Source: an uncultured Candidatus Saccharibacteria bacterium | GTDB taxonomy: Bacteria > Patescibacteriota > Saccharimonadia > Saccharimonadales > Saccharimonadaceae | Length of the DNA stretch: 64,000 nt | Assembly: GCA_963548065.1 (NCBI GenBank) | Contig: CAUUSZ010000001.1 | Span: 22,594-86,593, forward strand | Direction of reading: 5' to 3' | Shown here: positions 8,793 through 48,306 of the stretch, piece after piece | Numbering within the stretch: the first letter of the stretch is position 1 | How the letters are laid out: every line of letters starts with the position of its first letter | Translations under genes and position numbers: made by a program | Notes under the pieces: model-generated | Databases searched by the model: none | Told to the model about the DNA's origin: nothing | What the model saw: the letters and a program-made list of their open reading frames with translations, nothing else

Positions 8793-9626
8793 ATGAAGCC
8801 AATTACCTCACCTGAGATCACTACACTAGAGATTATCATTATTATTATCGTGGCGATTGCACTGTATTGGGTGGGGCCACGCGTAGTGATGTGGCTGACA
8901 CGGCATGCCTTCGTTACCACATATCAGCGTACGCTGCCTAAGAAGGATCTCGAGAAGCGGCACAAGACGCTGGGCGGGCTCTTTGCTAATGTATGGCGCA
9001 TTATTGTCGTGGTGATTGCGGGCTATGCTATCTTTACTCATTTTTTCAATAGTGCAGCTCTTGCACCACTGTTTGCGAGCGCAGGGATTATTGGTGTTGC
9101 CTTCGGGTTTGGCGCGCAGTCGCTCGTTAAGGATTTTCTCTCAGGGGTATTTATTATTAGCGAAAACCAGTATCGGGTAGGAGATATTATCGAGATCGAT
9201 GGCTTTGGCGGGACGGTCGAGCGGATCGGCGTGCGCTCCACAGTGATCCGCGATGTCGAGGGCAATGTCCACTTCTTCCCTAATGGTGTGGTGCAGCATG
9301 TCATCAACAAGACGATGGGCTATAGCAAAGTATACTTCACCATTACCGTTGCACCTGACACCAACATTAGTACCGCCAGCGATATCATCAATCGGATTGG
9401 TGAGGAAATTTCTGGCGAGGAAAAATGGCAGCGCAAAGTGATCGAGCCACCACATTTCGACATTCTTGGCGACTTCAATGCGTCGTCGATTAGCCTCGTT
9501 GTCTCCGGCAAGACCCAGCCATCCGACCAGTGGGCCCTCACGGCCGAGATGCGGCGACGGATTCTGCGTGAGTTTGAAAAAGAGCACATCGAGCTCGGCG
9601 CAGCCTCGCCAGGCAAGCACAAATAA
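8793..9626 (+). CDS. Mechanosensitive ion channel (MscS family)
   Basis: TM helices are followed by LVKDFLSGVFIISENQYRVGDIIEIDGFGGTVERIGVRSTVIRDVEGNVHFFPNG, the MscS beta-domain signature. Confidence 0.85.
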   Translation: MKPITSPEITTLEIIIIIIVAIALYWVGPRVVMWLTRHAFVTTYQRTLPKKDLEKRHKTLGGLFANVWRIIVVVIAGYAIFTHFFNSAALAPLFASAGIIGVAFGFGAQSLVKDFLSGVFIISENQYRVGDIIEIDGFGGTVERIGVRSTVIRDVEGNVHFFPNGVVQHVINKTMGYSKVYFTITVAPDTNISTASDIINRIGEEISGEEKWQRKVIEPPHFDILGDFNASSISLVVSGKTQPSDQWALTAEMRRRILREFEKEHIELGAASPGKHK

Positions 9627-9782
9627 CCTCTATTGCGTATGCATTGCTCCCGCCACAACAAAAATTCATTCTGCGTAGCGGATCTCCTGCTGGGCTATTA
9701 TGCTTTAATGAAGCTCTGATCTCAAGGTATATGACCTCTGTTAAGACACATCGCGTATTTACCAATATAGTATAATACTCTC

Positions 9783-10619
9783 ATGAATCAGCAATTTCCC
9801 TCTTATCCTTATGAATCACAGCCGGCAGCTCCACCTCAGGCTCAGCCTGTGCCGCCAGCTCCATATTATCCACAGCAGCCAGTGCAAGCACAGCCGCAGC
9901 AGCCACCGACATGGCCAGCCCAACAGCCCGAGCCTGCACCAACTCAGATACCACAACCGGCAACCCCAACACCCCCAAGTAACCCTGCGCAACCAGCCGA
10001 GCAATCACCCATTCAGCAGTCCGCACCCCTTGTTGTCCAGCCAGCAGCCCAGCCGGCGCCAGCAGCAATGGATGCCAACTATAGCAGTGTTTTTGACGGC
10101 ACACCACTCGTTATGGCAACGCTCGTCTCGCACTATCACAACCGCACCGTCTTTAGCCAAGTGCCCTGCATTCTTGAATGGACGACGACCAATCGCATCC
10201 GCGCCATCGACTTCGACTCCAAAACAAACCAAATGGTCGGCGTGGTGCTCGATATCGATCCACAGCAAATCACCAAAGCGGCCGTCGAGGTAAGCTTTAT
10301 CATCATATGGGTCAATGGCCAGCGCATCCAGTTCGACTTTGCTGGAGCGAGCACCCAGCTGCTAGCTGGCCTTGGCGCTGCAGTGTCACCTGGCATTGGT
10401 GGTATTCTCTATGGCCACAACATCGAGCGCGCACTCGACAACGACTACGACTGGTGGTGGGCCGCCCTTCAAGCCTACGCACCCTACGCTAAGATTGTTG
10501 ACGGCTTCGAGCGTGACGCGATGATTATTAACAGAGGAGTTAATATTGGTCTCATTATGGCCTTTGTGACACCGATCTTGGTGATACTTATCGCCTTTAT
10601 TATGGCATTATTATCATAA
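9783..10619 (+). CDS. Pro/Gln-rich tail-anchored protein, paralog 1 (hypothetical)
   Basis: This 278 aa protein has a roughly 95 aa P/Q low-complexity N-terminus, a conserved core (YSSVFDGTPL.. PC.LEWT.TNRIRAID .. DIDPQQITKA .. SFIIIW.NGQR.QF.FAGA) and a C-terminal TM helix. It is a paralog of 10820..11536. Confidence 0.65.
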   Translation: MNQQFPSYPYESQPAAPPQAQPVPPAPYYPQQPVQAQPQQPPTWPAQQPEPAPTQIPQPATPTPPSNPAQPAEQSPIQQSAPLVVQPAAQPAPAAMDANYSSVFDGTPLVMATLVSHYHNRTVFSQVPCILEWTTTNRIRAIDFDSKTNQMVGVVLDIDPQQITKAAVEVSFIIIWVNGQRIQFDFAGASTQLLAGLGAAVSPGIGGILYGHNIERALDNDYDWWWAALQAYAPYAKIVDGFERDAMIINRGVNIGLIMAFVTPILVILIAFIMALLS

Positions 10620-29356: not shown

Positions 29357-29570
29357 GACATGGCTTAGGGCTATCTTAAATCATCGCTTTTTACCAATTT
29401 TCTTCGCATGCCTGCACTAATCTCCGCTCTTCATATCTCCTTGAACCCCTCTCCTCTTTGCTTATCTCACCCTAGAGTTAGAGAGCCACTGTCTTGGGTT
29501 TATACTCTTAGTCCGTTCTGGTTTGCTCATTATCTACCCCTGTTCATTCCTCTTATGCTATACTAATCAT

Positions 29571-30071
29571 ATGAATCCGCTTGCGATGATTGCCTACCAG
29601 ACCAAAGACTATCCACGCCTGCCCAATGGAAGGATCGACTACACTGGTCAACTCATCTGTTTTGTCTTTAATTGCGTGGTATGCTATGGTGATGAGATTT
29701 TGCTAGCCCGGCGGAGCCAGCAAGAGGTTGAGCAGCCACGTATGCTCAATGGCGTCTCTGGCTTCATTGACCGGACTGATACGAGCATTACGGTACTGGC
29801 CGGGCAAGAATTGGCCGAGGAGTTGGGCATTGACCCGCGAGATACGACTATCGTGGTGGCACGGCAACCCCTGATGCAGATTGATGCAGCGCATAGCCGT
29901 CAGTGGTATGTGTATCCGGTGCTCGTTGAGTGTGCGCAGCGCATAACACCTCGGCTTAATGCCGAAAATAGCGCAGCAGCGTGGTATCCACTCACCGAGA
30001 TCGATGCCTTGCCACTGCTACCGTTTTATCACGAGACGCTTCACGCTGGCCTAGCAATGCGCCACAAGTAG
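29571..30071 (+). CDS. NUDIX hydrolase
   Basis: The Nudix box-like segment is GFIDRTDTSITVLAGQELAEELGI. The start ATG 29571 has a TATACT 6 nt upstream. Confidence 0.7.
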   Translation: MNPLAMIAYQTKDYPRLPNGRIDYTGQLICFVFNCVVCYGDEILLARRSQQEVEQPRMLNGVSGFIDRTDTSITVLAGQELAEELGIDPRDTTIVVARQPLMQIDAAHSRQWYVYPVLVECAQRITPRLNAENSAAAWYPLTEIDALPLLPFYHETLHAGLAMRHK

Positions 30072-30097
30072 GCTTTGCGTAATTGAAGAAATAATAA

Positions 30098-30126
30098 AGA
30101 GCCAGCCCAACGACTGGCTCTTTGTC
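30098..30126. terminator. Intrinsic terminator
   Basis: AGAGCCAG-cccaacga-CTGGCTCT is followed by TTGTCT, and an A-rich tract on the other side makes it potentially bidirectional. Confidence 0.7.
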
Positions 30127-30519
30127 TCTGTTACGATGCTATCTACACTGCCTGCGAGAGATCGTACACGGTGTATTGCGTGCCACCGTAGTCAACCTTG
30201 GTGCCAGCACTCGCCGCCCAGGTAGCGATGGCGGAGTTACCACCCGGCCCACCATGATGGGTAGTTTGTGTTTGGGCTGATGAGGATTTTACAGGAGAGA
30301 GATGAAAGCTAACTTAAAGAAACTCCTGCAGAAGCGACGTGCTCGTATCAGCCCATTTATTACTTCTCGCTGTCTTATTCTTCCTCTAGGAAGTTATGAA
30401 AGCTAGTATTTTGCCTAAGCACCAATATTGAGAAAGTAGCCCAAACTATCTAGCCTATTAGTATAAAGGCAATAAACCTAATACAACAGGGTATATGGAA
30501 CCAAGACAGAAGTTATACA

Positions 30520-33108
30520 CTATTCACTCGTGTGCTCTGCGAGCATTTGTGCAATCATCTCCGGTGTCCATACCGTGCCATCAGCAAAAACCACTTTTTC
30601 GATCTGCTGGCTTGTGCTCTCATGCAGTCCGTCGTATGAGTACGAGCCAAAATATCCTTGGATAATGATTTTATCACCTGTACCCGTGATAGCAAGCTCG
30701 AGACTTTCATATGATGAAAGGTTGATGCGTCGAACAGTCACATCACGCGGATTAATGTCTTCGCCAAACTGCAGTGTGTCAACGCCGTCATCATCACTTA
30801 TCGTGTCAACACCATCCCCTCGCTTGAAGGTATAGATATCGTTGCCGCCTGCACCATACAACACATCATTACCCTGCCCACCAGTCAGCATATCATCTTT
30901 CTCACCACCAATGAGGCTGTCATCACCGTCGTCCCCATAGAGCACATTTGCGTCTTGCCTCGCGCCACGCACCGTGTCGTTACCAGCTCCACTATGTACC
31001 GTGATACCATCATCATCAAAGGCGTCAATAGAATCATCGTCAGCTGTGCCTTGTAAGTGATGCGTCATAGTGCGGATTGCCTGCTCATCCCACACGGTGC
31101 CATCTGCAAAGACAAAGCGCTCGACACGATGACCTGGCACGGGACGGTTCCGTCCTGTCCAGTCACTCGAACCATAATAGTCTTTGATGCGAATACTACC
31201 AGAGCCCTTTATGTCTAAGACAAGATCATAGTCATTGCCTGGCGTGCCATACGGGCGACTCTCATAGCGTGCCATTACATCGCTTGGCACGATACCCGCA
31301 CCAAACCGTACAGTGTCAATGCCACCAAAGTCGCTAATCGTGTCATTACCATCACCACGGTTATAGATATATGTATCGTCCCCAAATTGAGAGTTGATCC
31401 GGTCATCACCTGCGCCGCCAACAATCAACCCGGAACCATTTATTCCATCATCACCTGCGCCACCATAGAGCTTATTAGAATCACCTTCTGAACCATTAAG
31501 GTTGTCATCGCCAGCACCGCCAAAAATTGTATCACTACCACCATCACCATATAGAGAATCGTCACCATCGCCGCCAAAAATCATATCATTACCACCTTTG
31601 CCCATGATGGTGTCATTCCCTGCATCACCCATCAATGTATCATCAGAATTCGTTCCTGTTACGTAATCATTCCCTTCTCGGCCCTCGACATAGACCGCAC
31701 GCTTCGTCACGCCATAGTCTGGGACGTGATCATAACCATCAATAGAATCGTCTGCTGCTGTACCAACGACATGTGCACTTGCACCAAAGACTATCTGCAG
31801 CCAACGCGCCATCGCATCAGGCGTCTCTACTATAGCAGCAAGTGTATCACGCGTTATTCTAGCTGCACCACTCAGTACACTCAGCACGGCAATGTCGAGA
31901 CGGAGCGAAGTTGTCCATTGCGTAGCCCCAGCAAGTTGTGCCATCAGCACACGAGCAAAGGCATCAGCTTGCTCACCCATAATCCGGCTTGTTTCATATA
32001 CACTAGAGGTAAGGATATTCACCTGATCGCGAATCACCTGTGCTACATCGACTATGATCTTCTTACCACTTTCAGCGACAGAGAGTGTTATTCGCACAAG
32101 CTCTTCAGCTGTAGCACTTGGAATCTCAACAACGATGAAATGAACACCATTGGCAATACCGGTATATACTTCCAGTGTTGTACGAAGTGCGCCAGCCAAT
32201 GTATTCGTGATGGAGTCTCCCTGCGGTACAGTGGCTGCTAGCGTACCATCATCAGTTAATAAACTACTTGGACGATGTGCATCGAAAGCTAGCTCTTGGC
32301 TAGTGCGATTCACTGCATACCCGAGCGATGCTATGCTTGCAGCTGCCATCCACCCCATAGCTGAGGCATGCTCGCCATTGCGTGCCGCCACAGCAATGGC
32401 ACCCTGCGCATACTGCAGTATTGTCACATAGTCACGGTCCTTCTTACGCAGCTCATCACTGTTCATATCCTTAATGTACACTGTGCAGCCCAGCTGCACA
32501 CCATACATACCAATGATATCGTGCTCATTGGTGTAGTCCGTTACTGAGGTATCATAGTCCCGCGGGTTGACATTCTTCAGCACTTGGCCAATCCCTACCG
32601 CGTCGAAGGTGACCGTCTTATATGCACCACCAGTTTTATACGCCATATACTGTGCCAGTCCACCACCGAGTGAATGACCGGTGAAGCTCTTGGTGCCCAC
32701 ATGAGCACCGCCACCAACTTTCTTGATCGTCTCGGTATAGAAGGTGTAGGCATCGTGGAATTGGTTCAGCCCATCCTGCACAAAAACATTTCCACTCGAT
32801 GCAATCGCAATATCCGACTCAATATCTTTCATCGCTTCCCAGATATTCTTATCAATATCTGTCCCGCGGTAGGCAAAGACAATGTCCTTGGTGGCTGGAT
32901 CTTGCACAGCAATAGCCGACATGCCAGATGAAGTGGTTGTAGTGTTGATGAGGTGCCAGGATGCGAGGGAGGAGAGGGGTTTAAGTTCAAGACGGTTGTT
33001 TCTAGGTACTTTCTTAATAATTTCTTTTAAAGATTTGTTGATATCATTATCAGAAAACGGCTCATATGCCAATGAGCTCAAAGTTAAAAACTGTTCGTCT
33101 TTTACCAT
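30520..33108 (-). CDS. Class-3 lipase domain fused to two RTX (hemolysin-type Ca-binding) repeat modules
   Basis: The N-terminal third carries FTGHSLGGGLAQYMAY (GxSxG elbow of lipase_3). The C-terminal half has two blocks of GGxGxDxUx nonapeptides (GKGGNDMIFGGDGDDSLYGDGGSDTIFGGAGDDNLNG; GGEKDDMLTGGQGNDVLYGAGGNDIY). Each block is followed by an HCBP-related segment ending VERFVFADGTVWD or IEKVVFADGTVWT. The start lies 2 nt after the upstream gene's stop. Confidence 0.85.
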   Translation of the reverse strand: MVKDEQFLTLSSLAYEPFSDNDINKSLKEIIKKVPRNNRLELKPLSSLASWHLINTTTTSSGMSAIAVQDPATKDIVFAYRGTDIDKNIWEAMKDIESDIAIASSGNVFVQDGLNQFHDAYTFYTETIKKVGGGAHVGTKSFTGHSLGGGLAQYMAYKTGGAYKTVTFDAVGIGQVLKNVNPRDYDTSVTDYTNEHDIIGMYGVQLGCTVYIKDMNSDELRKKDRDYVTILQYAQGAIAVAARNGEHASAMGWMAAASIASLGYAVNRTSQELAFDAHRPSSLLTDDGTLAATVPQGDSITNTLAGALRTTLEVYTGIANGVHFIVVEIPSATAEELVRITLSVAESGKKIIVDVAQVIRDQVNILTSSVYETSRIMGEQADAFARVLMAQLAGATQWTTSLRLDIAVLSVLSGAARITRDTLAAIVETPDAMARWLQIVFGASAHVVGTAADDSIDGYDHVPDYGVTKRAVYVEGREGNDYVTGTNSDDTLMGDAGNDTIMGKGGNDMIFGGDGDDSLYGDGGSDTIFGGAGDDNLNGSEGDSNKLYGGAGDDGINGSGLIVGGAGDDRINSQFGDDTYIYNRGDGNDTISDFGGIDTVRFGAGIVPSDVMARYESRPYGTPGNDYDLVLDIKGSGSIRIKDYYGSSDWTGRNRPVPGHRVERFVFADGTVWDEQAIRTMTHHLQGTADDDSIDAFDDDGITVHSGAGNDTVRGARQDANVLYGDDGDDSLIGGEKDDMLTGGQGNDVLYGAGGNDIYTFKRGDGVDTISDDDGVDTLQFGEDINPRDVTVRRINLSSYESLELAITGTGDKIIIQGYFGSYSYDGLHESTSQQIEKVVFADGTVWTPEMIAQMLAEHTSE

Positions 33109-33110
33109 GA

Positions 33111-33872
33111 CTATATCCTCCCTTTACTCTTTTTAAAGCAATCCTTAGAAGTTTCTTGCGCCGTTTTCTCGCTTATACCTCCATACTCCTGACAAATATA
33201 TCGTGCATCTTCAGTTCTGCTATTTACAACATATCTCACAGCATAACTTTTCGGGTTTTTTGATTGGACATACTCCACAAGTTTTCTTACGTTTTGGACA
33301 TCTTCTTCTTTTACCTGATCCCCTACTACAACAATAGATACTTCATATATAATATGGTCCCCATACTTTCGCAACATCTCAGCAAAAGCTGGTGTGCCCT
33401 GTATCTCATCAGCTACGTCAGGAGCAATTGTAATATCTGGCATATATTTTACTGCAGGTATAGACAACTTTTTAACCATCTTGGTAAGATCTTTTTCTTC
33501 CTGCTCATTGTAAAGCGCTGAGAGGTAGTTATCACGGTAGAGCCGGTGATCTTTCTCTAAAACACGAAAGGTATAAGAGCTACCCTCTCTATGTGCATCT
33601 GCAACTTTGCCGCCACTTCTTGCAAATCCACCTCCTTCAATTCGATAGTTCTTGATAATAAAGTGCTGGTGATATTTTTTCTCTAGATAGGCGCGCATTT
33701 CAGCCTGAGCTTGATGAGCCTCTACAAGATACTTAATATGAAATATACCGATTAATGTACCAGTTAATAGAAGTATGACGCATGTCGGAATAATGATAAC
33801 GCGGAGGATACCACGAAAAAGAATGGTGCGGAAGCTTAGCCTATTATTCTCGTTTGGTTCTTTCTTGTGCAT
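33111..33872 (-). CDS. Membrane-anchored partner protein of the lipase (paralog A2; candidate immunity/accessory)
   Basis: This 253 aa protein has an N-terminal TM helix (ILRVIIIPTCVILLLTGTLIGIF) and is homologous along its length to 34132..34887. The SD is GGAGGAGG. It is AT-rich. Confidence 0.7.
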   Translation of the reverse strand: MHKKEPNENNRLSFRTILFRGILRVIIIPTCVILLLTGTLIGIFHIKYLVEAHQAQAEMRAYLEKKYHQHFIIKNYRIEGGGFARSGGKVADAHREGSSYTFRVLEKDHRLYRDNYLSALYNEQEEKDLTKMVKKLSIPAVKYMPDITIAPDVADEIQGTPAFAEMLRKYGDHIIYEVSIVVVGDQVKEEDVQNVRKLVEYVQSKNPKSYAVRYVVNSRTEDARYICQEYGGISEKTAQETSKDCFKKSKGRI

Positions 33873-33930
33873 ATTTTCTAGCCTCCTCCACTTTCTACTC
33901 TGTGACTATTCTTACATTAATATAGAACTT
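33873..33930 (-). promoter_or_regulatory. Duplicated promoter/leader, copy 2
   Basis: About 60 nt upstream of A2 is nearly identical to 34888..34948. Read on the minus strand the shared sequence is AAGTTCTATATT..TG..AGAATAGTCACAGAG.AGAAAGT.G.GG.G.G.TAGAAAAT-ATG. Confidence 0.6.
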
Positions 33931-34135
33931 TCAGGTTATTCCTCTTCTGAAAGTTGTTTAATTGATGAAGCGCCATGAGGAGAGGAGATTTAAGTTCAAG
34001 CAAGTTAGTTCTTGCAGTCAAGTGAGAGACAATTTCTTTAAGGGTTTGTTTTGATACATCATCTAACAAACTATTTGGTATTACTTGATAAGCAAGCGAT
34101 GACAATGCAAGATACTGTTCAGTTTTCAAATTCAT
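33917..34135 (-). pseudogene. Truncated N-terminal stub of a second lipase
   Basis: The 72 aa product MNLKTEQYLALSSLAYQ...LLELKSPLLMALHQL aligns with residues 1-62 of the 862 aa lipase (MVKDEQFLTLSSLAYE...RLELKPLSSLASWHL). It then runs into the duplicated leader and stops. It overlaps the A1 stop by 4 nt. Confidence 0.7.
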
Positions 34136-34887
34136 TTTTTCTCCTTAACTATTTCTTTATCATATATACGAATATCTTGGTTTTCGTGAAGTATTTTTGC
34201 TATTTCATCTTCTAAGAGCACTATGCTGTGCTTGGTACCATTTTCGTACCATCGGTATATCAGTTTAGTCTCAGCAGGAACATCCTTAATAATCTGCAAC
34301 AACTGCTTGACTCGCTCATAGTGCACCAACGAAGGAGCATCGTTTTGCGCAGTTACTTCTAGCTTATAGAGTATACTTTGGCTATGCTTATGTGCTACCT
34401 CTTGAAATAACGGCAAAGCCTTAGTGTCTGTAACAGCATTGCCAATTTCGCCCGTTGCTATATCCACAGTAGACGCGTACGATCCAGTCATTATTTTATC
34501 GACCATCGGTTTTATTCTTGCCATTTCTTGCATACCCCATAGTGCATCTACATAATCATCCCATGAGTCTGAAAGTGACATCATCACCTTAAAGAGAAGT
34601 TTTTTGTTCGCCACAGGATAAGCTACCGCCTCAAACCACCCCCGCACCGCGAACCCACTTCCGTTTCGTATTGGTTTCTCGACAACGAATTCTTCTTTAT
34701 ACTTGTTACGTAAATACGTCTTCATTGTCGCTTGAGCTTGGCCAGCCTCGATATCTAACTTAAGATAAAAACCACCAACGAGGAGAAGCATAATGGTTGT
34801 TGGAATAATGATGACATAGAGGATACCGCGGAAGACGATAGTGCGAAGGCTTAGTGTGCCGTTGTCACTTAGTTTCTTTTTGCGCAT
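34132..34887 (-). CDS. Membrane-anchored partner protein (paralog A1; now orphan)
   Basis: This 251 aa protein starts at ATG 34887 (MRKKKLSDNG). It has the same N-terminus and TM pattern (LRTIVFRGILYVIIIPTTIMLLL; EAGQAQATMKTYLRNKY) as A2. Confidence 0.7.
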   Translation of the reverse strand: MRKKKLSDNGTLSLRTIVFRGILYVIIIPTTIMLLLVGGFYLKLDIEAGQAQATMKTYLRNKYKEEFVVEKPIRNGSGFAVRGWFEAVAYPVANKKLLFKVMMSLSDSWDDYVDALWGMQEMARIKPMVDKIMTGSYASTVDIATGEIGNAVTDTKALPLFQEVAHKHSQSILYKLEVTAQNDAPSLVHYERVKQLLQIIKDVPAETKLIYRWYENGTKHSIVLLEDEIAKILHENQDIRIYDKEIVKEKK

Positions 34888-34948
34888 ATTTTCTACCCTC
34901 ACCCCCTACTTTCTGCTCTGTGACTATTCTAGCACGAATATAGAACTT
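34888..34948 (-). promoter_or_regulatory. Duplicated promoter/leader, copy 1
   Basis: See 33873..33930. Confidence 0.6.
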
Positions 34949-35035
34949 CTGATTTCCCCTTTTATGCGCTATATCAGTCTAGATACCACATCGATAAACA
35001 ATCTCCATCCTGCTCCTCATTCCTTATCAATCACC

Positions 35036-35635
35036 TCAACCATTAGTTTGCTTTTTCAATACCTGGTTTACTATCCCAGACTTATGTCTCTTCATGTTAT
35101 CGCCCCCTTCTAAGGCCATCCAACCTGCTGCTACGGATGCTGCCACAGATAGCTCATTGTTCATGAGCATACCTCGTAACTCGTCAGGTGTTACATGCAT
35201 TACCTCAATATCCTCAGTATCATCAAGGTGTTGCCTATGCTTTATAGTGACATTATCAGCAAAGACGATCGCTATCTTGACACGGCTATTCGTAGGGTCC
35301 TCAAAAAATGTAGGTCCCTCTACAAAGAGACTGGAGGTGCCTCCAGTCTCTTCATATAATTCCCTTTTTGCAGCAATTAAAGCAGATTCACCCGCATCGA
35401 TCTTACCCGCAGGAAATTCTATAACACTTTGCTGCGCTCCGTGTTTATACTGACGCACCAGTAAAAATTTGCCTTCATGAGTGCGTGGAACAATCAAAAC
35501 GGCGTTCATACCCTCTCGCACGTAATAATCATCGAGGACTTTGCCCGACGGGAGCCTGACGGTTTCAATATTGAGCTTGTACCACGGTGAGTCGACTAAC
35601 TTCTTTTGACTTATAACGTTCCATTCTTGATTCAT
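35036..35635 (-). CDS. NUDIX hydrolase (ADP-ribose pyrophosphatase-like)
   Basis: VIEFPAGKIDAGESALIAAKRELYEETGG is a canonical Nudix box. The start is ATG 35635 (MNQEWNV), with a TACAAT 6 nt upstream. Confidence 0.8.
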   Translation of the reverse strand: MNQEWNVISQKKLVDSPWYKLNIETVRLPSGKVLDDYYVREGMNAVLIVPRTHEGKFLLVRQYKHGAQQSVIEFPAGKIDAGESALIAAKRELYEETGGTSSLFVEGPTFFEDPTNSRVKIAIVFADNVTIKHRQHLDDTEDIEVMHVTPDELRGMLMNNELSVAASVAAGWMALEGGDNMKRHKSGIVNQVLKKQTNG

Positions 35636-35848
35636 AGTATTATTGTAGTGTATCTTCAGATCTAGCACTACCATCAACTGTAGCATAAGTAGTATAAGCG
35701 ATGTCATACATCTATGTATAAACAAGACATTTACACGCTCGCAGTTCCCTTTCACATTGTACATCATAGGACTCCAGCGGCACACAACAAGTGATCTCAA
35801 GGCATGTTCAGTTTTTTATCCTTTCTCGTATGTAGTAAAATACTATAC

Positions 35849-37084
35849 ATGAATACTCAAGCGCACCACGTTATTACCGACGAACACTTGATCGATGAAG
35901 CGCTATCTCGCTCAGTTGCCGAAATTCTTCCGAGCAAAGATAGTCTCAAAAAGGAGCTACAAAGTGGCCGCCGCCTCACATTCTATCTTGGTATTGACCC
36001 AACTGCGAACTATGTTCATCTCGGGCATTCAACAAATTATCTGATGCTCGAACGGTTCCACGCTCTTGGCCACCGGATTATTGTACTAATTGGCGACTTT
36101 ACCGCCATGATCGGTGATCCGAGCGATAAAACTTCGATGCGTGTGCAGCTAACACGTGAACAAGTGCTGGAGAACCTGCAGACATTTAAGGCGCAAATAG
36201 GCAAGATTCTAGACTTTAACGATATCGACAACCCGATAGAATTCCAGTTTAATTCGGAGTGGCTCTCCAAGCTAACATTTGAAGACTCTGTGGAGCTTGC
36301 CTCCAACTTTACCGTGCAGCAGATGCTAGAGCGCGATGCGTTCAAAAAGCGAGTCGCTGCCGAGAAGCCACTCTTCGTCCATGAGTTCTTCTATCCGCTG
36401 ATGCAGGGCTACGATTCTGTGGCAATGGATGTTGATGTAGAGATTGGTGGCACCGACCAAACATTCAATATGCTGGCTGGCCGTACATTGCTCAAGCGCT
36501 ACAAGCAAAAAGAAAAGTTTGTCATGACAACCACACTGCTCGAAAACCCAGAAACTGGCGAAAAATTAATGAGCAAAAGCCTTGGCACCGGTGTGGGTCT
36601 CGATCTGAATGCCAAAGATATGTTCTTTAAAATCATGCAGCTGGCGGATGCGGGTATTTACCAGTGTTTTATGGATTGTACGCGCCTGCCTATGAGTGAG
36701 ATTGCTGTAATTAAAAATCGACTCAACGACGGAGAAAACCCACGCGATATCAAAAAGGATCTTGCCCGAGAGATAGTGTCAATGTACCACGGAGCGAGCG
36801 CCGCCGTTGATGCTGAGCAGCAACGGGTCTCTGAGGTGAGCCAGAAGAATCTTGCTAAGGATATTGACATCATTCAGGTAGATGCCCATGAGTCAATTAT
36901 CGATATCATTGTTCGACTGGGCATCACAAAAAGTCGCGGCGAGGCCAGACGGCTCATTAAGCAAAATGCCGTGAAGATCAATGACTCCAAAATTTCCAGC
37001 GAAGATACACCACTTACTAACGGTGACATTTTGCGCATTGGCAAGAAACACACCCTCAAGGTAGCCTTGCACCCAAATCAATAG
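35849..37084 (+). CDS. tyrS: Tyrosine--tRNA ligase
   Basis: GIDPTANYVHLGH is the HIGH motif, LMSKSLG is the KMSKS motif, and there is a C-terminal S4 domain (SRGEARRLIKQNAVKINDSKI). A TAAAAT lies 7 nt upstream of the ATG. Confidence 0.95.
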   Translation: MNTQAHHVITDEHLIDEALSRSVAEILPSKDSLKKELQSGRRLTFYLGIDPTANYVHLGHSTNYLMLERFHALGHRIIVLIGDFTAMIGDPSDKTSMRVQLTREQVLENLQTFKAQIGKILDFNDIDNPIEFQFNSEWLSKLTFEDSVELASNFTVQQMLERDAFKKRVAAEKPLFVHEFFYPLMQGYDSVAMDVDVEIGGTDQTFNMLAGRTLLKRYKQKEKFVMTTTLLENPETGEKLMSKSLGTGVGLDLNAKDMFFKIMQLADAGIYQCFMDCTRLPMSEIAVIKNRLNDGENPRDIKKDLAREIVSMYHGASAAVDAEQQRVSEVSQKNLAKDIDIIQVDAHESIIDIIVRLGITKSRGEARRLIKQNAVKINDSKISSEDTPLTNGDILRIGKKHTLKVALHPNQ

Positions 37085-43332: not shown

Positions 43333-45216
43333 TTATACCCCCCAAGGTTTTTCGTTGTTTGTGATCTGAATTGAGAAGTCATGTAGCCTACCATCATCTT
43401 TATTAGTTTGAGTATTAACTTTCTTTATCTGCTTCATCAGAGCGTCTATAACATTGTGAGGTATCGTCATTAGAAAGAAAATAGCATCAGTTACCGAGGG
43501 ATTATTGATCTGCTTGATCATGTCGATAAGTTGTTTAAAATCTTTATTCTGCCAAGGATCAAGTAAGGCATCTTCCTTTTTAGGTTTTGGTGCACCCATT
43601 TTCCTATGATAGTAATCTGCATCAAGAGCCTGACTAAAAGACTGATCTAGCAGAAGCATGTCAGAATTTTTAGGCATAAATAGTCCATGTCGCAGATGAT
43701 ATGCGAGGTGAACAACCTCATTTGACGATACTATGTCTTTGTGGTTTTCAAGGCGCTGTTTAATGTAAAAAACAAACTCGTAGGGATCTTTGAAATACTC
43801 AGCCATCAAATCAAGGTCAAACAGGCTGAGTTGTATTGGCGGGAATTGGTTGACATCAGCCAAAAACACGCGTATTTGATCCATTGCCGCCGGGTATGGC
43901 TCGTTTGATACGCATAATATATACGCGTGCTTTATACTTTCCGGTGGTATAATTTGGTTGCCAGACTTATCAACTAATTTGTAGGGCTCATTACTCAGAA
44001 TTGTGTCGCGTGCTTTTATGCCTTGCTTGTAAGGGTCAATGACTGCCTTCTGAAAATCGGATTTAATCGCTTCAACATCACCATTGAGTGCAGAAGCCGT
44101 CATTTTTTTACTTTTGTTCTGGGCAATAATAGCTGTATTACCAACTATCCCCATAACATCAATATCGGTCAAGGTATTCTTTCCTTTAACTATCTTCGTA
44201 GCTTTATATGTATTCGTCTCGCCAAATATACTTTTGAAGTAGTCATATGTTATATCTTCGGCTACCTCACCAATATGTCTGTTAACAGTATTGACATATT
44301 GCTTATCTTGACGCATCCAATACAAAGGGCTTTTGTATATAGCTGAGGCTAACGTCATCATGTTCGGGAAGAAGTAGATGTCGTTTCCTAGGTTAATAAT
44401 AGGTTTGTAAGTGAATATACTCTCATTGCCAGGCTCATTGAATGTTTCTAGCTGATCACCAAACGAACAGTTAAACAAGTCAAGAAATACTTGAATGTCT
44501 TCTTTTGTAATTTTTTTGTCTGTGGCTTGTACAATTTTAACGATATAGTCGAGAGGAAATGCCATTTCGTCTATTGCACGTAAGGATTTTGCCTGCTCAT
44601 GGGTAGATATCGAGCGAGCAAGGTGTATACTATTAAACATATTCTTTAAGGCGAAAAAAATAGTCTTTGCCTTTGTGATGTTAAACTTCGTATTTGCTTC
44701 AATCCAATCTTTATCCTGTGCATATAGTCGTTGTGCTATCTCGAATGACTGTATATCATAAAACCCTGTATCACCATAAAAAGTAGTTTCTATAATCATC
44801 TCTTTACTACCAAAGATCTCTCGAAACTCTTTTTCTTTCTCTTCATCGCTCATAGCCTTGATCTGTTCTGATGAGTGTTTCATTATAGCTTCGTCAAAAT
44901 TATACATATAAGTACTATGAAGCTCATCGAGTAATAACCTGGTGTATTTGATTGCTTCATCGATTTGTTCCTTGTTAATCTCATTAAAACTGACTGCTTC
45001 ATTTTTAAGCATTAGACCCATAAGAAATGCTACCTCATTGCTATGCAATCTCGCACGCCAGTCAATATTAGCTACATTTTGTACATCTACAAAGAAATCT
45101 TTTGAAATAGCCTCTGCAAAGGCAAATATATAACCTTTTGTTGCTAAAAGTAGTTCTATATCAGATATAATATCCTCTCGCGAGCGTTTCTCTGCTATAC
45201 TCTCACTATCTCTCAT
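43333..45216 (-). CDS. Large hypothetical protein with central Mrr/NERD-like PD-(D/E)xK nuclease motif
   Basis: The 627 aa product runs from ATG 45216 (MRDSES), with a TATAAT (45229..45224) 7 nt upstream. The central segment is HIGEVAEDITYDYFKSIF...TLTDIDVMGIVGNTAIIAQNKSKK. It fits the E...D(I/G)D...(E/Q)xK pattern of Mrr_cat/NERD restriction-endonuclease-fold domains. Confidence 0.65.
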   Translation of the reverse strand: MRDSESIAEKRSREDIISDIELLLATKGYIFAFAEAISKDFFVDVQNVANIDWRARLHSNEVAFLMGLMLKNEAVSFNEINKEQIDEAIKYTRLLLDELHSTYMYNFDEAIMKHSSEQIKAMSDEEKEKEFREIFGSKEMIIETTFYGDTGFYDIQSFEIAQRLYAQDKDWIEANTKFNITKAKTIFFALKNMFNSIHLARSISTHEQAKSLRAIDEMAFPLDYIVKIVQATDKKITKEDIQVFLDLFNCSFGDQLETFNEPGNESIFTYKPIINLGNDIYFFPNMMTLASAIYKSPLYWMRQDKQYVNTVNRHIGEVAEDITYDYFKSIFGETNTYKATKIVKGKNTLTDIDVMGIVGNTAIIAQNKSKKMTASALNGDVEAIKSDFQKAVIDPYKQGIKARDTILSNEPYKLVDKSGNQIIPPESIKHAYILCVSNEPYPAAMDQIRVFLADVNQFPPIQLSLFDLDLMAEYFKDPYEFVFYIKQRLENHKDIVSSNEVVHLAYHLRHGLFMPKNSDMLLLDQSFSQALDADYYHRKMGAPKPKKEDALLDPWQNKDFKQLIDMIKQINNPSVTDAIFFLMTIPHNVIDALMKQIKKVNTQTNKDDGRLHDFSIQITNNEKPWGV

Positions 45217-45464
45217 GTATAACATTATACCGTTAGACTTATTTATTAGATTAATATAATATTTTCAACAACACCATAGCTATATCGCCTAGGCGAAATC
45301 TCAATACCTCTGCCACACCTACTAACAAACACACCGGAAAGAATCGCTCTATGACGGCATAACAAAAGATGACACCCACTTCTGTATCCAAATCAAAGAG
45401 GATAAGCACAGCGATCGCCAAGACTTCATGTCAATGTTTGAGCGTCGACCACGATAATTACTCT

Positions 45465-45543
45465 AAAATAAAAATCTCCCGCGGTGCAGCCTAGAAACTA
45501 CTTACCGGAGATTTTAAGCAACACAGCGATTAACTATGTCTAG
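45465..45543 (-). ncRNA. Candidate small RNA, unit 1
   Basis: This is the predicted transcript between the promoter at 45550..45577 and the hairpin plus T-run at 45465..45512. There is no SD or meaningful ORF. It is homologous to unit 2. Confidence 0.45.
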
Positions 45544-45549
45544 TTATAG

Positions 45550-45577
45550 ACTATATGCCTTTCGGCAGTCATGTCAA
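45550..45577 (-). promoter_or_regulatory. Sigma70-type promoter of unit 1
   Basis: The minus strand carries TTGACA (45577..45572), a 16 nt spacer, then TATAGT (45555..45550). Confidence 0.55.
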
Positions 45578-45611
45578 TGGCTATTTTCATAATTTTCATC
45601 AAAATACGCCA

Positions 45612-45686
45612 ACAAAAAATCTCCCGCTGTGTGACCTGAAAACCACCCGCCGGAGATTAGAGTGACACGGCGTTAGCCTGTATCTG
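45612..45686 (-). ncRNA. Candidate small RNA, unit 2
   Basis: This is the predicted transcript between the promoter at 45693..45720 and the hairpin (45619..45657) plus T6 run. It is homologous to unit 1. Confidence 0.45.
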
Positions 45687-45692
45687 CCTATA

Positions 45693-45720
45693 ATTATATG
45701 TCTTTTGATACCATTGTCAA
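45693..45720 (-). promoter_or_regulatory. Consensus sigma70-type promoter of unit 2
   Basis: The minus strand carries TTGACA (45720..45715), a 16 nt spacer, then TATAAT (45698..45693). Both hexamers match the consensus perfectly. Confidence 0.6.
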
Positions 45721-45799
45721 CAGCAACTCTGGAATTTACGTCCGACTTTACTTCGAAATTCTCTCAACATTTATCTTTTTTGTTTATCCTGCATATTTT

Positions 45800-46035
45800 C
45801 TACTACTTTTATCATGAAGATTAATAGACAGACAAAAACAATATTGAGAAGTTTGAAGGCGAAGATTTTATGTTCCAATTAACTGATGAGGAAATATCTG
45901 CACTTTCAAGGTCGCAAAATGTGACCTTGAACAAAGGAGCAGGGTATTTATATGCTTATGACTGTATTAAGGGGAGAACGTGCTATTAAGCAAAGGAGAG
46001 CCTTAATGAGAACATTTAAGCAGATGAAAAATGGA
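45800..46035 (+). pseudogene. Decayed, internally deleted fragment of an ORF6N-type gene (inverted relative to the intact copy)
   Basis: The plus strand reads ..GAAGATTTTATGTTCCAATTAACTGATGAGGAA..TCGCAAAATGTGACCTTGAACAAAGGAGCAGGGTATTTATATGCTTATGAC..TTTAAGCAGATGAAAAA. This matches the reverse complement of about 46855..47115 inside the intact gene, with a roughly 57 nt deletion and frame disruption. Confidence 0.6.
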
Positions 46036-46219
46036 CAATCTCACCTCATACGTAGTCTTTCTGATCTTCTTTGTCGTCTTTGTTACTATTGTTTGTTTAT
46101 TTTTATTTTCTCTTGCATATAGTTTTTCTTCTATTTGTTGCACATAAAAAGACGTTAGATTGTTACTTCTACCGCCCTACGTAAAGCTTATATAACTGCC
46201 TCATCTGTTATTGACATAG

Positions 46220-47233
46220 TTAAATTTTCAAATTCTTATTGTGTAGCATTCCACCAAACATCGTATGATACATGTCTTTTGATGATTCTTCTATCTTAGT
46301 AATACTTGATATTTTATTTCCGGCATCTTTTGATGATGCTCCACAAAGATAAAAGGCTTCATGTTCTGTCCCATAGTCTATCGCAATATACCGATCGTGA
46401 TACTTTTTACCTGCAATCTTCATTTTTACGTTGATGGTAGGGTAGTCTCTTATAAAATCATGGAGAATATTTCTTGTAAGCATATCTTTATGTCTTACAT
46501 TATCGCTAAATATAATGACTTCAACACTATCTTTTGCAGCTCTTAGCAGCTCTAATGTTTTTAAGCCTATATAGTTATCTATGACATAAATGCTTTTCTT
46601 GGCAGACTTATATAGCTTAGTATAGGCAACATCAGCTTCTATCTTATCTCCATTCATCAAGAGGAAGTGTTTATAGGTATCCGGATCTATAAAATTATCC
46701 ATCACTTTTTTCAAATCCTCTTTTGTTGCTAAGGTGCTTATTGTATCATTTATCTTTGCTATATCATGTGTGTTCTTATTAGTCTGTATAGCTATTTGGA
46801 CTAATTCTTTTGAGCCGATAAAATCTTGATTTTCAATCATAAAGTCTTTCATCTGCTTAAACAAGCGTATTAAGGCCTTGCTCTGTTTAACTGCCAGGTC
46901 TCCCCTCAATACGGTCATAAGCATATAAATACCCTGCTCCGTAAAGGCATAGGGATTGTACTTTATATTGCTTCCTCTGCCTGTTCCTTTGTTCAAGGTC
47001 ACATTTTGTGATCTTGAAAGTTCGTCCACTTCCTCATCAGTCAATTGGAACATAAAATCTTCATCAAATTTTTCATTATTTCTTTTTACCTGTTGATTAA
47101 ACGCTCTTGTTTCATACCCATAAATTTCAGCAAGTTCAAAATCAAGCATAACCTTTTGATTTCTTATATAGTGAATCTTGCTTTTAATTGTCGTTTCATC
47201 TATTACCACAATCTCTTTATTTTCTTCTGTCAT
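46220..47233 (-). CDS. ORF6N (KilA-N-like) domain protein with conserved C-terminal domain
   Basis: IRNQKVMLDFELAEIYGYETRAFNQQVKRNNEKFDEDFMFQLTDEEVDELSRSQNVT....YNPYAFTEQGIYMLMTVLRGDLAVKQSKALIRLFKQMK is the ORF6N signature. The C-terminal ...VIDNYIGLKTLELL...KKYHDRYIAIDY...YLCGASSKDAGNK is the domain commonly fused to it. The start is ATG 47233 after GGAGGTG. Confidence 0.8.
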   Translation of the reverse strand: MTEENKEIVVIDETTIKSKIHYIRNQKVMLDFELAEIYGYETRAFNQQVKRNNEKFDEDFMFQLTDEEVDELSRSQNVTLNKGTGRGSNIKYNPYAFTEQGIYMLMTVLRGDLAVKQSKALIRLFKQMKDFMIENQDFIGSKELVQIAIQTNKNTHDIAKINDTISTLATKEDLKKVMDNFIDPDTYKHFLLMNGDKIEADVAYTKLYKSAKKSIYVIDNYIGLKTLELLRAAKDSVEVIIFSDNVRHKDMLTRNILHDFIRDYPTINVKMKIAGKKYHDRYIAIDYGTEHEAFYLCGASSKDAGNKISSITKIEESSKDMYHTMFGGMLHNKNLKI

Positions 47234-47306
47234 GAAATGCACCTCCACAATTATCTCAATATCTTTTCCAATCTGATACGCACTACATAGCTTTTTGAAA
47301 TTAATA

Positions 47307-47630
47307 TCATGTCCTTTTGTATTTTTCTATTCCACCTTCAGCTTTTCCGATGTGTTCCACATTCTTTACAAGTCCATTATTTACATTTTCATAAAACCAT
47401 CTACCTATCAAAGCTGGCGGTGTTGCGATTAACTCTCTTAAAACAAACTCTTTCCCCTTCGGCAAGGAGCTTATTGTATTGAGTAAGGCAGTATACAGTG
47501 TGACATAGCTTGTATTTTCTTGTAGACTGCTGCACTTACAATATTCACTCACACTTGGGTAATTACCCTCTATTGCTTTTTTCATTAAAGTTTTCAGTTC
47601 TTCATCGGTTACGGTAAATTGAATTCGCAT
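47307..47630 (-). CDS. Hypothetical protein (possible RHH-like N-terminus)
   Basis: This 107 aa ORF is AT-rich and lies upstream of, and co-oriented with, the ORF6N gene. Confidence 0.5.
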   Translation of the reverse strand: MRIQFTVTDEELKTLMKKAIEGNYPSVSEYCKCSSLQENTSYVTLYTALLNTISSLPKGKEFVLRELIATPPALIGRWFYENVNNGLVKNVEHIGKAEGGIEKYKRT

Positions 47631-47931
47631 TTATATATTCTCTCTTTATAACTGAGATTATTACAATATCAATATCATTTTATCATACATACAATGATTT
47701 TTCTCATACTACAATTTTAATCCTTACATGATGTTTTTACGCTTCGCCATAATCTGACACCACGTTTCCCATTACTGCTCTAAAAACGCCTTTCACTTAC
47801 TTTTAGGATAGCTATACATGTTTTCCCTTATCATAATCTTCACGCGTTGGAATCTTGCCGGTCTTTTTCTGAGATAGCCTATCCTTATCTTGTTCATACC
47901 AGGTACAGATCGTTACATCCGTCGTCTCGAT

Positions 47932-48306
47932 ATGTCTTTTCAGACGACCCGACTAACGCAGCGCCGGATAGCCGAGCTGTTCGACGTCGATGTGCGCACC
48001 ATCAGCGAGCACCTCGGGAATGTCTTCTCTTCTGGTGAACTGGAGCGTGATTCAGTTATCCGGAAATTCCGGATAACTGCAAGTGACGGTAAGCGATACG
48101 CGGTTCAGCACTACAACCTCGACGCCATCATCTCGGTCGGTTACCGCGTCAACTCGGTGCGTGCTACCCAGTTCCGTCAGTGGGGTACGAGTGTGCTGCG
48201 CGACTTTGCTATTCGGGGCTATGTTATAGACCGCCAACGTTTAGAGCAGCCCTCTCAAGCCGCCTGGCACAAGCGCCGCGCACAAGTAAGTGAGTCAACG
48301 AAATGA
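47932..48306 (+). pseudogene. Truncated RhuM-family gene
   Basis: LTQRRIAELFDVDVRTISEHLGNVFSSGEL...RKFRITASDGKRYAVQHYNLDAIISVGYRVNSVRATQFRQWGTSVLRDFAIRGYVIDRQRLE matches the N-terminal third or so of RhuM-family proteins. It then ends, whereas full-length members as I recall them are roughly 300+ aa. Confidence 0.65.

Follow-up and report, generated by a model that had tools for sequence, protein, structure and literature searches.

The locus described here lies on the minus strand of a 64,000-nucleotide stretch (the window) from an uncultured Candidatus Saccharibacteria bacterium (GenBank assembly GCA_963548065.1, contig CAUUSZ010000001.1, positions 22,594 to 86,593 of the forward strand), between window positions 30520 and 34948. 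In the order of transcription, it is composed of a leader, the gene of a putative membrane protein (A1), a 72-codon lipase stub, a second leader, the gene of a second, related protein (A2), and an open reading frame (ORF) encoding a lipase joined to RTX repeats. With a probability of roughly 0.6, it encodes a secreted lipase toxin accompanied by a cognate and an orphan immunity protein, the specificity of which would reside in the first 39 residues of the lipase. An earlier note on this DNA had described a tandemly duplicated module, one lipase of which had decayed, and had read it as an effector–immunity locus. Two units, each formed of an A gene and a lipase start, are indeed present, but they belong to a cassette array and not to a duplicated whole module. 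The linkage of A genes with lipases, the retention of intact A genes under selection, the predicted signal anchor of A, and the complete catalytic triad of the lipase are in line with the effector–immunity reading, immunity itself being what we infer from them.

A cassette array with strict type pairing

The locus was compared with 120 related loci, the ORFs of which were called and scored with hidden Markov models for the A family, the lipase domain, the linker, and the RTX part; 35 Saccharibacteria genomes, window included, form the close set. The A genes of the close set belong to five types (at least 75% identity within types, 27–44% between them), and the lipase starts also fall into five types. 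The pairing of the two is strict, as it holds in 46 out of 46 adjacencies (a-2, b-3, c-4, d-1, and e-5), type a being found with a type-2 lipase N-terminus in 13 cases out of 13. Full-length lipases of types 1–4 display 31–44% identity in codons 1–39 and 97–100% from codon 40 onwards; type 5 is represented by stubs only. The constant body begins at L40 (LELKPLSSLASW...), and the BLASTN breakpoint coincides exactly with the first base of codon 40 (window position 32991). What varies, as one unit, is the set formed by the leader, the A gene, and lipase codons 1–39, each genome possessing one constant body. That types 1–4 share this single body at such high identity rules out a duplication of whole diverged lipase genes. 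Over all 121 loci, 139 A-to-N-terminus adjacencies were counted, among which each N-terminus cluster is confined to a single A cluster; in 6 cases the partner is not the majority one, as compared to 85 such cases expected by permutation.

The stub that follows A1 is homologous to the start of the lipase, as had been proposed (45% identity to residues 2–55, E 2e-8 in BLAST). Up to position 33977, it exhibits ~93% DNA identity with the start of type-1 full-length lipases; beyond this point the similarity decays, and the next leader follows. In BLASTN, window positions 34947-33977 align to positions 8889-9860 of the related locus L021. Judging from these alignments, the stub is a type-1 variable segment left in front of the type-a/type-2 cassette that is now fused to the body. 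As the cognate type-1 lipase N-terminus is only a stub, A1 is an orphan in this genome. The 23-nucleotide junction at the start of the body is common to all cassette types, and a decayed copy of it is found in the stub (~33977-33999). It corresponds to internal repeat D8 and to overlapping BLASTN segments in L021 (9838-9860), and is likely the recombination site at which a cassette becomes fused to the constant body.

Cassette order and number vary among genomes, the window having one cassette (type b) fewer than locus L040. The unit formed by a type-d A gene and the 72-codon stub is found in at least 10 other, independent metagenome-assembled genomes (MAGs) and in further metagenome contigs, which argues against the stub being an assembly artefact, a possibility raised in the earlier note. 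In two loci (L032 10969-13371 and L045 8968-11370), the lipase ORF is 800 amino-acids long and starts from a Met equivalent to window residue 62; a type-c A gene is located 5' of it at a gap of ~215 nucleotides, the variable start being missing or disrupted. A scan of viral contigs with the A alignment returned no relatives, and the cassettes are therefore not evidently phage-borne.

Selection on A genes and decay of the lipase

The fate of the two partners differs markedly among the 35 close genomes. A ORFs are full length in 132 cases out of 134, one of the two exceptions being cut by a contig end, versus an intact lipase (at least 850 residues) in only 11 genomes. The recurrent lesions of the lipase remove Asp197 and His278 of the catalytic triad, as in a 168-residue form that ends just past the GHSLGG motif and is followed by a deletion. 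The ratio of non-synonymous to synonymous substitution rates (dN/dS) ranges from 0.17 to 0.29 for the five A types (0.29 for type d), and is the same for non-cognate copies and in genomes without an intact lipase. The retention of the partner after loss of the enzyme, on which the effector–immunity proposal had been founded, recurs in the close set. The intact lipase core yields a dN/dS of 0.07. Since the dS of the lipase body (0.12) is comparable to that observed within A types, the body is an ordinary orthologue, and the cassettes are ancient alleles or paralogues kept side by side. This equal synonymous divergence is the signature of a long-lived polymorphism beside a shared gene.

The lipase-RTX protein

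The protein of 862 residues assembles, from its N- to its C-terminus, a lipase domain, a linker, and an RTX part. Pfam analysis identified HemolysinCabind (E 3e-21, three stretches) and HCBP_related (E 9e-28, two stretches), in agreement with the initial domain calls. These calls also included a class-3 lipase, for which the Pfam Lipase_3 score of 17.3 bits remains under the gathering score of 22; as a sequence search of the PDB returned only marginal matches to class-3 lipases, it is structure prediction together with Foldseek that confirmed the class-3 fold. In the AlphaFold2 model of residues 1–469, the core (residues 1–220) reaches a predicted local distance difference test (pLDDT) value of ~90. 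Its Foldseek matches comprise Yarrowia Lip2 (E 1e-6), other class-3 lipases, and a type VI secretion system (T6SS) lipase effector determined in complex with its immunity protein (9cys_A, E 2e-4). The GHSLGG motif spans residues 144–149, and the catalytic triad, Ser146 of this motif, Asp197, and His278, is conserved in an alignment with 17 homologues. The linker is predicted, at low confidence, as a mix of helices and strands. The N-terminus (MVKDEQFLTLSSLAYEPFSD) is not hydrophobic, and the protein possesses no signal peptide; at the other extremity, it stops directly after the second HCBP_related domain, C-terminal signals of type I secretion being of a kind that shows no sequence conservation. 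Internal DNA repeats (D2–D5 and D7) are found within the C-terminal carrier.

Three NCBIfam matches fall below their cut-offs: RTX_toxin (E 7.7e-51), the staphylococcal SA1320 family (E 6.7e-15, 54.6 bits for a cut-off of 230), and PueAB (78 bits for a cut-off of 670), the latter being confined to residues 703–781, which belong to the RTX part. An exact-sequence look-up of the lipase gave no record, and the PADLOC defence models match neither the lipase nor A1 nor A2.

The distant homologues in L002, L003, and L005 carry, according to precomputed Pfam annotation, the self-processing module SPM (PF26745). A module of this FrpC type is located between the lipase and the RTX part in L003 5825-12502 (2225 residues), L002 5506-8893, P0012, P0014, P0023, P0030, and P0032, its identification being based on precomputed PF26745 matches and on a motif such as RID-PIVLDISGQGITT. 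Its presence would imply a Ca2+-triggered release, and possibly a covalent linking, of the lipase domain. No such module was detected in the window lipase, which contains a single Asp-Pro at residue 70, outside such a context; two near-identical fragments (P0009 and P0010) exhibit RTX and HCBP families only, with no PF26745 on record. The 862-residue version has lost the module. Protein P0021 (739 residues, NCBI source) combines a homologous lipase domain with a long C-terminal region resembling, by eye, phage baseplate/late-control-D proteins, an arrangement that would put the same lipase warhead on a different delivery scaffold.

The A-family partner proteins

A1 and A2 are homologous and diverged, as first described (33% identity over 206 aligned residues, BLASTP E 3e-31). 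The statement of the earlier note that they match no recognised family also stands: neither Pfam at E ≤ 0.1 nor NCBIfam provides a family for A1 or A2, and Pfam at E ≤ 0.01 provides none for 53 diverse A members, be it DUF5037, DUF1433, or the lipase-chaperone family. In view of this lack of Pfam/NCBIfam matches, identification of A as a Lif-like foldase, a DUF1433 protein, or a DUF576 protein is not supported. A profile search of 1.84 billion representatives revealed 497 A-family clusters, nearly all of 200–280 residues.

The AlphaFold2 model of A2 (pLDDT 84, predicted template modelling score 0.73) comprises a long helix (residues 14–67), predicted to serve as membrane anchor and stalk, followed by a mixed α/β domain, a topology that agrees with the membrane protein originally proposed. 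Basic residues are present on the N-terminal side of the hydrophobic stretch, and many members, A2 included, harbor a conserved pair of Cys in the C-terminal domain; as both features fit an outside-facing domain, A is probably an N-terminally anchored, extracytoplasmic α/β protein. The Foldseek comparison of this model with the PDB, suggested along with the original reading, gave a single significant match, the DUF5037 protein RUMGNA_01148 of Ruminococcus gnavus (PDB ID 4gl6, E 6e-5, TM-score 0.41–0.43), the sole structural relative of the A ectodomain. With the A profile, 4gl6 is recovered by sequence as well (E 4e-4 over 88 positions, with the motif K-x-E-x-YL-x-E-x-YG-x-EF-x-V). The identity between the two is only 13–14%, no Pfam DUF5037 match is obtained for A1, A2, or 51 other members, and A is at best remotely related to DUF5037. 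The literature search on DUF5037 found no papers.

Type-a A2 is 93–97% identical across 29 genomes (L014-L042), each of them a GTDB species representative. This uniformity is unusual for a variable island and may result from a recent spread by recombination or natural transformation.

Distribution of A–lipase loci

A scan of one genome per species with the A-family alignment yielded 38 loci, 37 of which originate from Candidatus Saccharibacteria MAGs, mostly human oral; several relatives are collinear with the window at 92–97% DNA identity. These loci contain arrays of one to six tandem A genes, mostly interspersed with lipase 5' stubs of 40 to 198 codons, and the last gene of most arrays is that of a lipase-RTX protein, either intact or interrupted by truncation or frameshift. 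A lipase or a stub is present in 36 of them, the two others having neither. The survey of A and lipase co-occurrence advocated in the earlier note thus bears out the association. The order A, stub, A, lipase is also found in other lineages (L003, L010, L043, L044, L049, L054, and L059). A homologues at 44–48% identity are likewise located directly 5' of lipase-RTX genes, and the proteins encoded 3' of distant A homologues are 500 to 2225 residues long, with precomputed Pfam matches to Phospholipase-like (PF26363), SPM (PF26745), HemolysinCabind, and HCBP_related. In addition, 70 metagenome loci were collected with a narrower alignment, representing a different A subgroup; four end too soon, leaving 66 informative loci. 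In 52 of these, a lipase or a stub belongs to the array together with A, and it comes immediately after the A gene in nearly all.

Solitary A genes (270 or 314 residues) without a lipase remnant occur in L052, L053, L073, L077, L078, L118, and L119, where at least 1.6 kb of downstream sequence is available (4.5–5 kb in most). They are either fully orphaned immunity genes or family members with another role. In the Bacillota member Lihuaxuella thermophila (L051), a Mbeg1-like lipase bearing a signal peptide is followed by an A-like membrane protein. This region (L051 5956-11246) encodes two secreted proteins that share a signal peptide, PFPEAK repeats, and a Trp-rich region and differ in their C-termini, one being the lipase and the second displaying a weak, non-significant resemblance to EndoU (E 0.11). 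The gene of each secreted protein is followed by that of a membrane protein, a layout that resembles a polymorphic toxin locus.

Proposed mechanism and alternative explanations

From these features we infer the following mechanism. The N-terminal class-3 lipase domain would be the warhead of a lipase or phospholipase toxin, and the C-terminal RTX/HCBP part its carrier, dependent on Ca2+ and akin to those of type I secretion; the FrpC-type self-processing module of distant relatives would, once outside the cell and with Ca2+ present, set the lipase free. A would be anchored in the cytoplasmic membrane by its N-terminal helix, with its α/β domain exposed outside, where it would bind and neutralise the lipase before the latter attacks the producer's own membrane. 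Lipase residues 1–39 would form an exosite setting which A can bind, and this specificity would exist as discrete ancient types, each of which would be transmitted together with its A type in a single cassette. The lipase expressed by this genome would be of type 2, with A2 (type a) as its cognate partner, while A1 (type d) would be kept as an orphan immunity protein against the type-1 lipases of neighbouring cells. Recombination at the codon-40 junction and at the leader and A 5' ends would reshuffle, delete, and swap cassettes, so that related strains would come to display different toxin types and immunity repertoires. The most likely targets would be other Saccharibacteria, possibly also the host bacterium.

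A more far-reaching proposal is put forward here tentatively: the locus may represent an undescribed type-switching toxin–immunity system of Patescibacteria, in which an invariant secreted lipase receives its 39-residue specificity segment and its immunity gene from interchangeable upstream cassettes by junction recombination, under a balanced polymorphism. This polymorphism, maintained in episymbiont populations that share a host bacterium, would concern both the toxin types and the repertoires of immunity genes and would serve competition or kin discrimination.

Several points weigh against the main reading, a lipase toxin with its cognate and orphan immunity proteins. The catalytic domain does not vary from type to type, and type-specific immunity would thus need to act on the 39-residue exosite and not on the active site. 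The strict pairing of A with the lipase N-terminus is partly trivial, because the two are adjacent (2–4 nucleotides apart or overlapping) and no homology exists inside the variable regions. Furthermore, many loci are MAGs of related populations from partly overlapping collections, so that the counts given above represent non-independent events. A genes without any lipase remnant were found in 14 of the 66 informative metagenome loci; the earlier note had held that a general occurrence of A without lipases would speak against immunity, and the linkage, although not universal, largely withstands this objection. The modelled fold of A matches no known immunity family, its sole relative being a DUF5037 protein of unknown function. 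Finally, type I secretion genes are not adjacent to the locus and none was identified in the 64-kb window, where a single generic pair of ABC exporter genes was noted (56124..59926), ~24 kb away; Saccharibacteria are moreover thought to lack an outer membrane, which bears on the export route.

The alternative that best survives, although an unlikely one, is that A is a surface tether or capture receptor, on a matching copy of which the secreted lipase docks by its N-terminal segment to be displayed at the cell surface. The displayed lipase might harvest host membrane lipids or mediate adhesion, and orphan A types would capture the lipases of neighbours, a form of public-good piracy. The model here is the FrpC/FrpD pair of Neisseria meningitidis. 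FrpD, the crystal structure of which has been solved, is a surface lipoprotein encoded 5' of frpC and binds FrpC's N-terminal domain with sub-nanomolar affinity; the Ca2+-dependent self-processing module of FrpC is the one found in distant homologues of the window lipase (PMC5233953). The gene order is that of frpDC, with a surface-anchored protein of ~250–270 residues immediately 5' of an RTX protein, and the co-variation of the A type with the lipase N-terminus recalls the recognition of the N-terminal part of FrpC by FrpD. In receptor piracy, too, many receptor types are kept once the producer gene has been lost, and Saccharibacteria rely on their host for lipids. However, FrpD is an outer-membrane lipoprotein with another fold, highly conserved and neither polymorphic nor arrayed, and Foldseek detected no match of the A2 model to it in the PDB, although this library should contain the FrpD crystal structure. 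The window protein is, besides, devoid of the self-processing module. To our knowledge, FrpC's N-terminal domain has no recognised enzyme fold, and an active phospholipase displayed on the membrane of its producer would still require neutralising. In every experimentally tested case known to us in which a lipase effector has an adjacent, arrayed extracytoplasmic partner (Tle/Tli, TslA/TilA, and TslM/TilM), this partner is an immunity protein.

It is improbable that the lipase is mainly host-directed or nutritional, acting on the membrane of the actinobacterial host, with A providing self-protection only and the diversity of the cassettes arising from recombination and drift instead of competition among Saccharibacteria. 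The episymbiotic lifestyle, the strong conservation of the lipase core, and the invariance of the catalytic domain across cassette types would suit such a function. The lipase is nevertheless broken in 24 of the 35 close genomes, whereas an essential host-exploitation factor should be lost less often, and self-protection alone leaves unexplained the purifying selection on orphan A genes in genomes without an intact lipase. The five ancient discrete types beside a shared body point instead to balancing or frequency-dependent selection.

A third explanation, which makes A a foldase or an export helper required by its own lipase for folding or release, similar to Lif of family I.1/I.2 lipases and devoid of any protective role, is very improbable. 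Tight translational coupling, a predicted membrane anchor bearing an extracytoplasmic domain, and type-specific pairing with the lipase N-terminus would all be expected of a helper, but A has no Pfam match of any kind, the lipase-chaperone family included, and its modelled fold is α/β, as compared to the all-helical fold of Lif. Helpers without a client should also decay, in contrast with the near-complete set of intact A genes and with the purifying selection seen even in lipase-less genomes and on non-cognate types. Lastly, a neutral, decaying tandem duplication or an assembly artefact, in which the stub and the second A gene have no functional meaning, is scarcely credible: the stub is short, its 3' part is degenerate, and MAG assemblies can collapse or mis-join repeats, but the same units are found in dozens of independent assemblies, A1 and A2 are too distant (33% identity) to be recent duplicates, the A genes are under purifying selection, and the flanks are collinear with those of related genomes at 92–97% identity.

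Features and genomic context of the locus

The features of the locus are compiled in Table 1; all ORFs were found at the positions reported in the earlier note. A1 has an alternative GTG start at 34902. The coupling distances first reported were reproduced, the ATG of the lipase being located 2 nucleotides past the stop codon of A2 and that of the stub overlapping the stop codon of A1 by 4 nucleotides (ATGA). The two leaders, initially described as nearly identical, are similar (33885-33930 and 34903-34948), but the identity is 85% over 46 nucleotides; the similarity runs on into the 5' ends of the A genes (71% over 124 nucleotides). The same leader core (TGTGCTATAAT / TGCTAGAAT) is present 5' of A genes of several types in other genomes. 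The leaders appear promoter-like, with an extended -10-like TGnTAnAAT read by eye. A scan for canonical sigma-70 -35/-10 elements and terminators did not flag them and revealed no enrichment (10 sites for 11.5 expected), and an Rfam scan of 29500..36000 returned only sub-threshold chance matches, none in the leaders. The GC content of the locus is 42–44%, versus ~52% for the window as a whole.

Table 1. Features of the lipase-RTX locus, in window coordinates and in the order of transcription.
Feature	Position	Strand	Basis or description
Leader of cassette 1	34888..34948	-	CGTGCTAGAAT resembling an extended -10; Shine-Dalgarno GGGGGTGAGGG 7 nt 5' of the A1 ATG
A1, 251 aa from ATG, type-d A-family member	34132..34887	-	ORF call, typing
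Lipase stub, 72 codons, type-1 variable N-terminus	33917..34135	-	BLAST against the lipase
Leader of cassette 2	33873..33930	-	-10-like AATGTAAGAAT; Shine-Dalgarno GGAGGAGG
A2, 253 aa, type-a A-family member, partner of the full-length lipase	33111..33872	-	ORF call, typing
Lipase-RTX ORF, 862 aa	30520..33108	-	ORF call
Lipase codons 1-39, type-2 variable N-terminal segment, cassette part of the lipase	32992..33108	-	Between-type identity, BLASTN breakpoint
Junction sequence CTTGAACTTAAA..., encoding LELKPLSS	32969..32991	-	Internal repeat, BLASTN overlap, alignment
Constant lipase core, aa 40-300	32209..32991	-	Class-3 α/β-hydrolase fold (predicted), triad
Linker, aa 301-455	31744..32208	-	pLDDT ~30, no Pfam match
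C-terminal carrier, aa 456-862	30520..31743	-	Two RTX nonapeptide-repeat modules, each followed by an HCBP_related domain

The neighbours of the locus are a NUDIX gene, a HAD gene, a tyrosyl-tRNA synthetase (TyrRS) gene, and an acetyltransferase-like gene, in accordance with the initial observation that no dedicated secretion genes are adjacent. In L009 (10108-12918) and L040 (11581-14252), a gene of ~2.8 kb, the product of which (936 residues in L009) belongs to the glycosyltransferase-2 and PMT families, is inserted between the lipase and the NUDIX genes. It is reduced to a truncated copy in L001 and is gone entirely from the window (30072-30519); the downstream flank is therefore also a deletion hotspot. 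Further away, window positions 43333-48000 form a strongly AT-rich island (35–37% GC as compared to ~52%), which encodes a 630-residue protein without a Pfam match (43333..45225, minus strand) and a phage-antirepressor-like protein with an ORF6N domain (46220..47248, minus strand) and may be a mobile or phage-derived insertion. The beginning of the window harbors two tRNA-Met (CAT) genes, one per strand and less than 1.5 kb apart (384-461, minus; 1814-1889, plus).

Comparison with known systems

Saccharibacteria and other Patescibacteria are abundant, mostly uncultured, and attached to other bacteria. The literature searched does not mention an interbacterial toxin–immunity system of their own, and searches on Saccharibacteria with lipase, RTX, type I secretion, polymorphic toxin, or immunity returned nothing relevant. 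Identification of the locus as a lipase effector–immunity locus, with A as a new immunity family, is supported by comparative evidence but unproven. It offers a testable candidate, comprising an enzyme with a recognisable active site and at least ~500 unannotated A sequence clusters, and the shuffling of the five specificity types over dozens of oral strains allows one to predict which partner should neutralise which lipase. Confirmation would show how epibionts compete for or partition host cells, and that a short swappable N-terminal segment, instead of the catalytic domain, can encode immunity specificity; in practical terms, a large family of hypothetical proteins in oral metagenomes would gain an annotation.

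Among the systems studied by experiment, the staphylococcal TslM/TilM pair, together with the related TslA/TilA, comes closest to the locus. TslM is a lipase toxin and TilM its DUF1433 immunity protein (Tsl2/Til2), TslM being a 'reverse' substrate of T7SSb, the type VIIb secretion system of Staphylococcus aureus, its lipase being N-terminal and its secretion domain C-terminal; TilM is signal-anchored and extracellular, its genes form rafts of non-identical copies, orphans persist where the toxin is missing, and the toxin is often truncated or frameshifted (PMC13560087). The resemblance with the window locus covers the N-terminal class-3-like lipase (both resemble Yarrowia Lip2) placed before the secretion part, the uncleaved N-terminal membrane helix followed by an extracellular globular domain (predicted for A), the arrays of immunity genes with orphan copies, and the frequent truncation or frameshift of the toxin. 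Conversely, the carrier found here is RTX/HCBP and not an LXG-like helical domain with a WXG100 partner, and no small helical partner gene is present in the locus. A (~250 residues) is unrelated to DUF1433 (~150 residues), and its gene is located upstream and translationally coupled, whereas the TilM gene is divergent; variability is confined here to the first 39 lipase residues, which move with the immunity gene as a cassette, and the organism is a Saccharibacterium. If confirmed, the 'reverse' toxin architecture of the staphylococcal T7SS lipases would also exist with RTX carriers.

TslA/TilA (Tsl1; PMC10730906) and the T6SS Tle/Tli pairs comprise phospholipase toxins acting outside the cytoplasmic membrane, as proposed here for the window lipase. 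Their immunity proteins, encoded by an adjacent gene, are membrane- or lipid-anchored and extracytoplasmic, features to which A is likened, and the T6SS effector 9cys_A is among the Foldseek matches of the window lipase. They differ in their T7SS or T6SS secretion and in their immunity folds, TilA proteins being DUF576-family lipoproteins and the others belonging to Tli families; a specificity cassette at the N-terminus has not been reported for either of these systems.

Family I.3 lipases and polyurethanases (Pseudomonas and Serratia LipA, PueA/PueB) share with the window protein a C-terminal RTX part, the absence of a signal peptide, the GHSLGG motif, and a presumed type I secretion. The catalytic domain of the window protein is, however, of the class-3/Mbeg1-like lineage, and the PueAB match concerns the RTX part only; we know of no partner or immunity gene of family I.3 lipases.

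The arrangement of the cassettes has a close counterpart in contact-dependent inhibition (CDI; cdiA-CT/cdiI) and Rhs systems, in which displaced modules form arrays, each retaining an immunity gene and a toxin fragment with a short conserved stretch, and in which recombination at this stretch swaps the expressed toxin type, as proposed for the junction described above. The polarity is mirrored, since the modules are found here upstream and it is the toxin gene's 5' end that they contain, and the swapped part is a 39-residue segment and not a whole catalytic domain. If the proposed reading is true, the locus would mirror the CDI/Rhs orphan modules; its immunity fold would be new, and no interbacterial weapon would have been defined earlier in these ultra-small bacteria.

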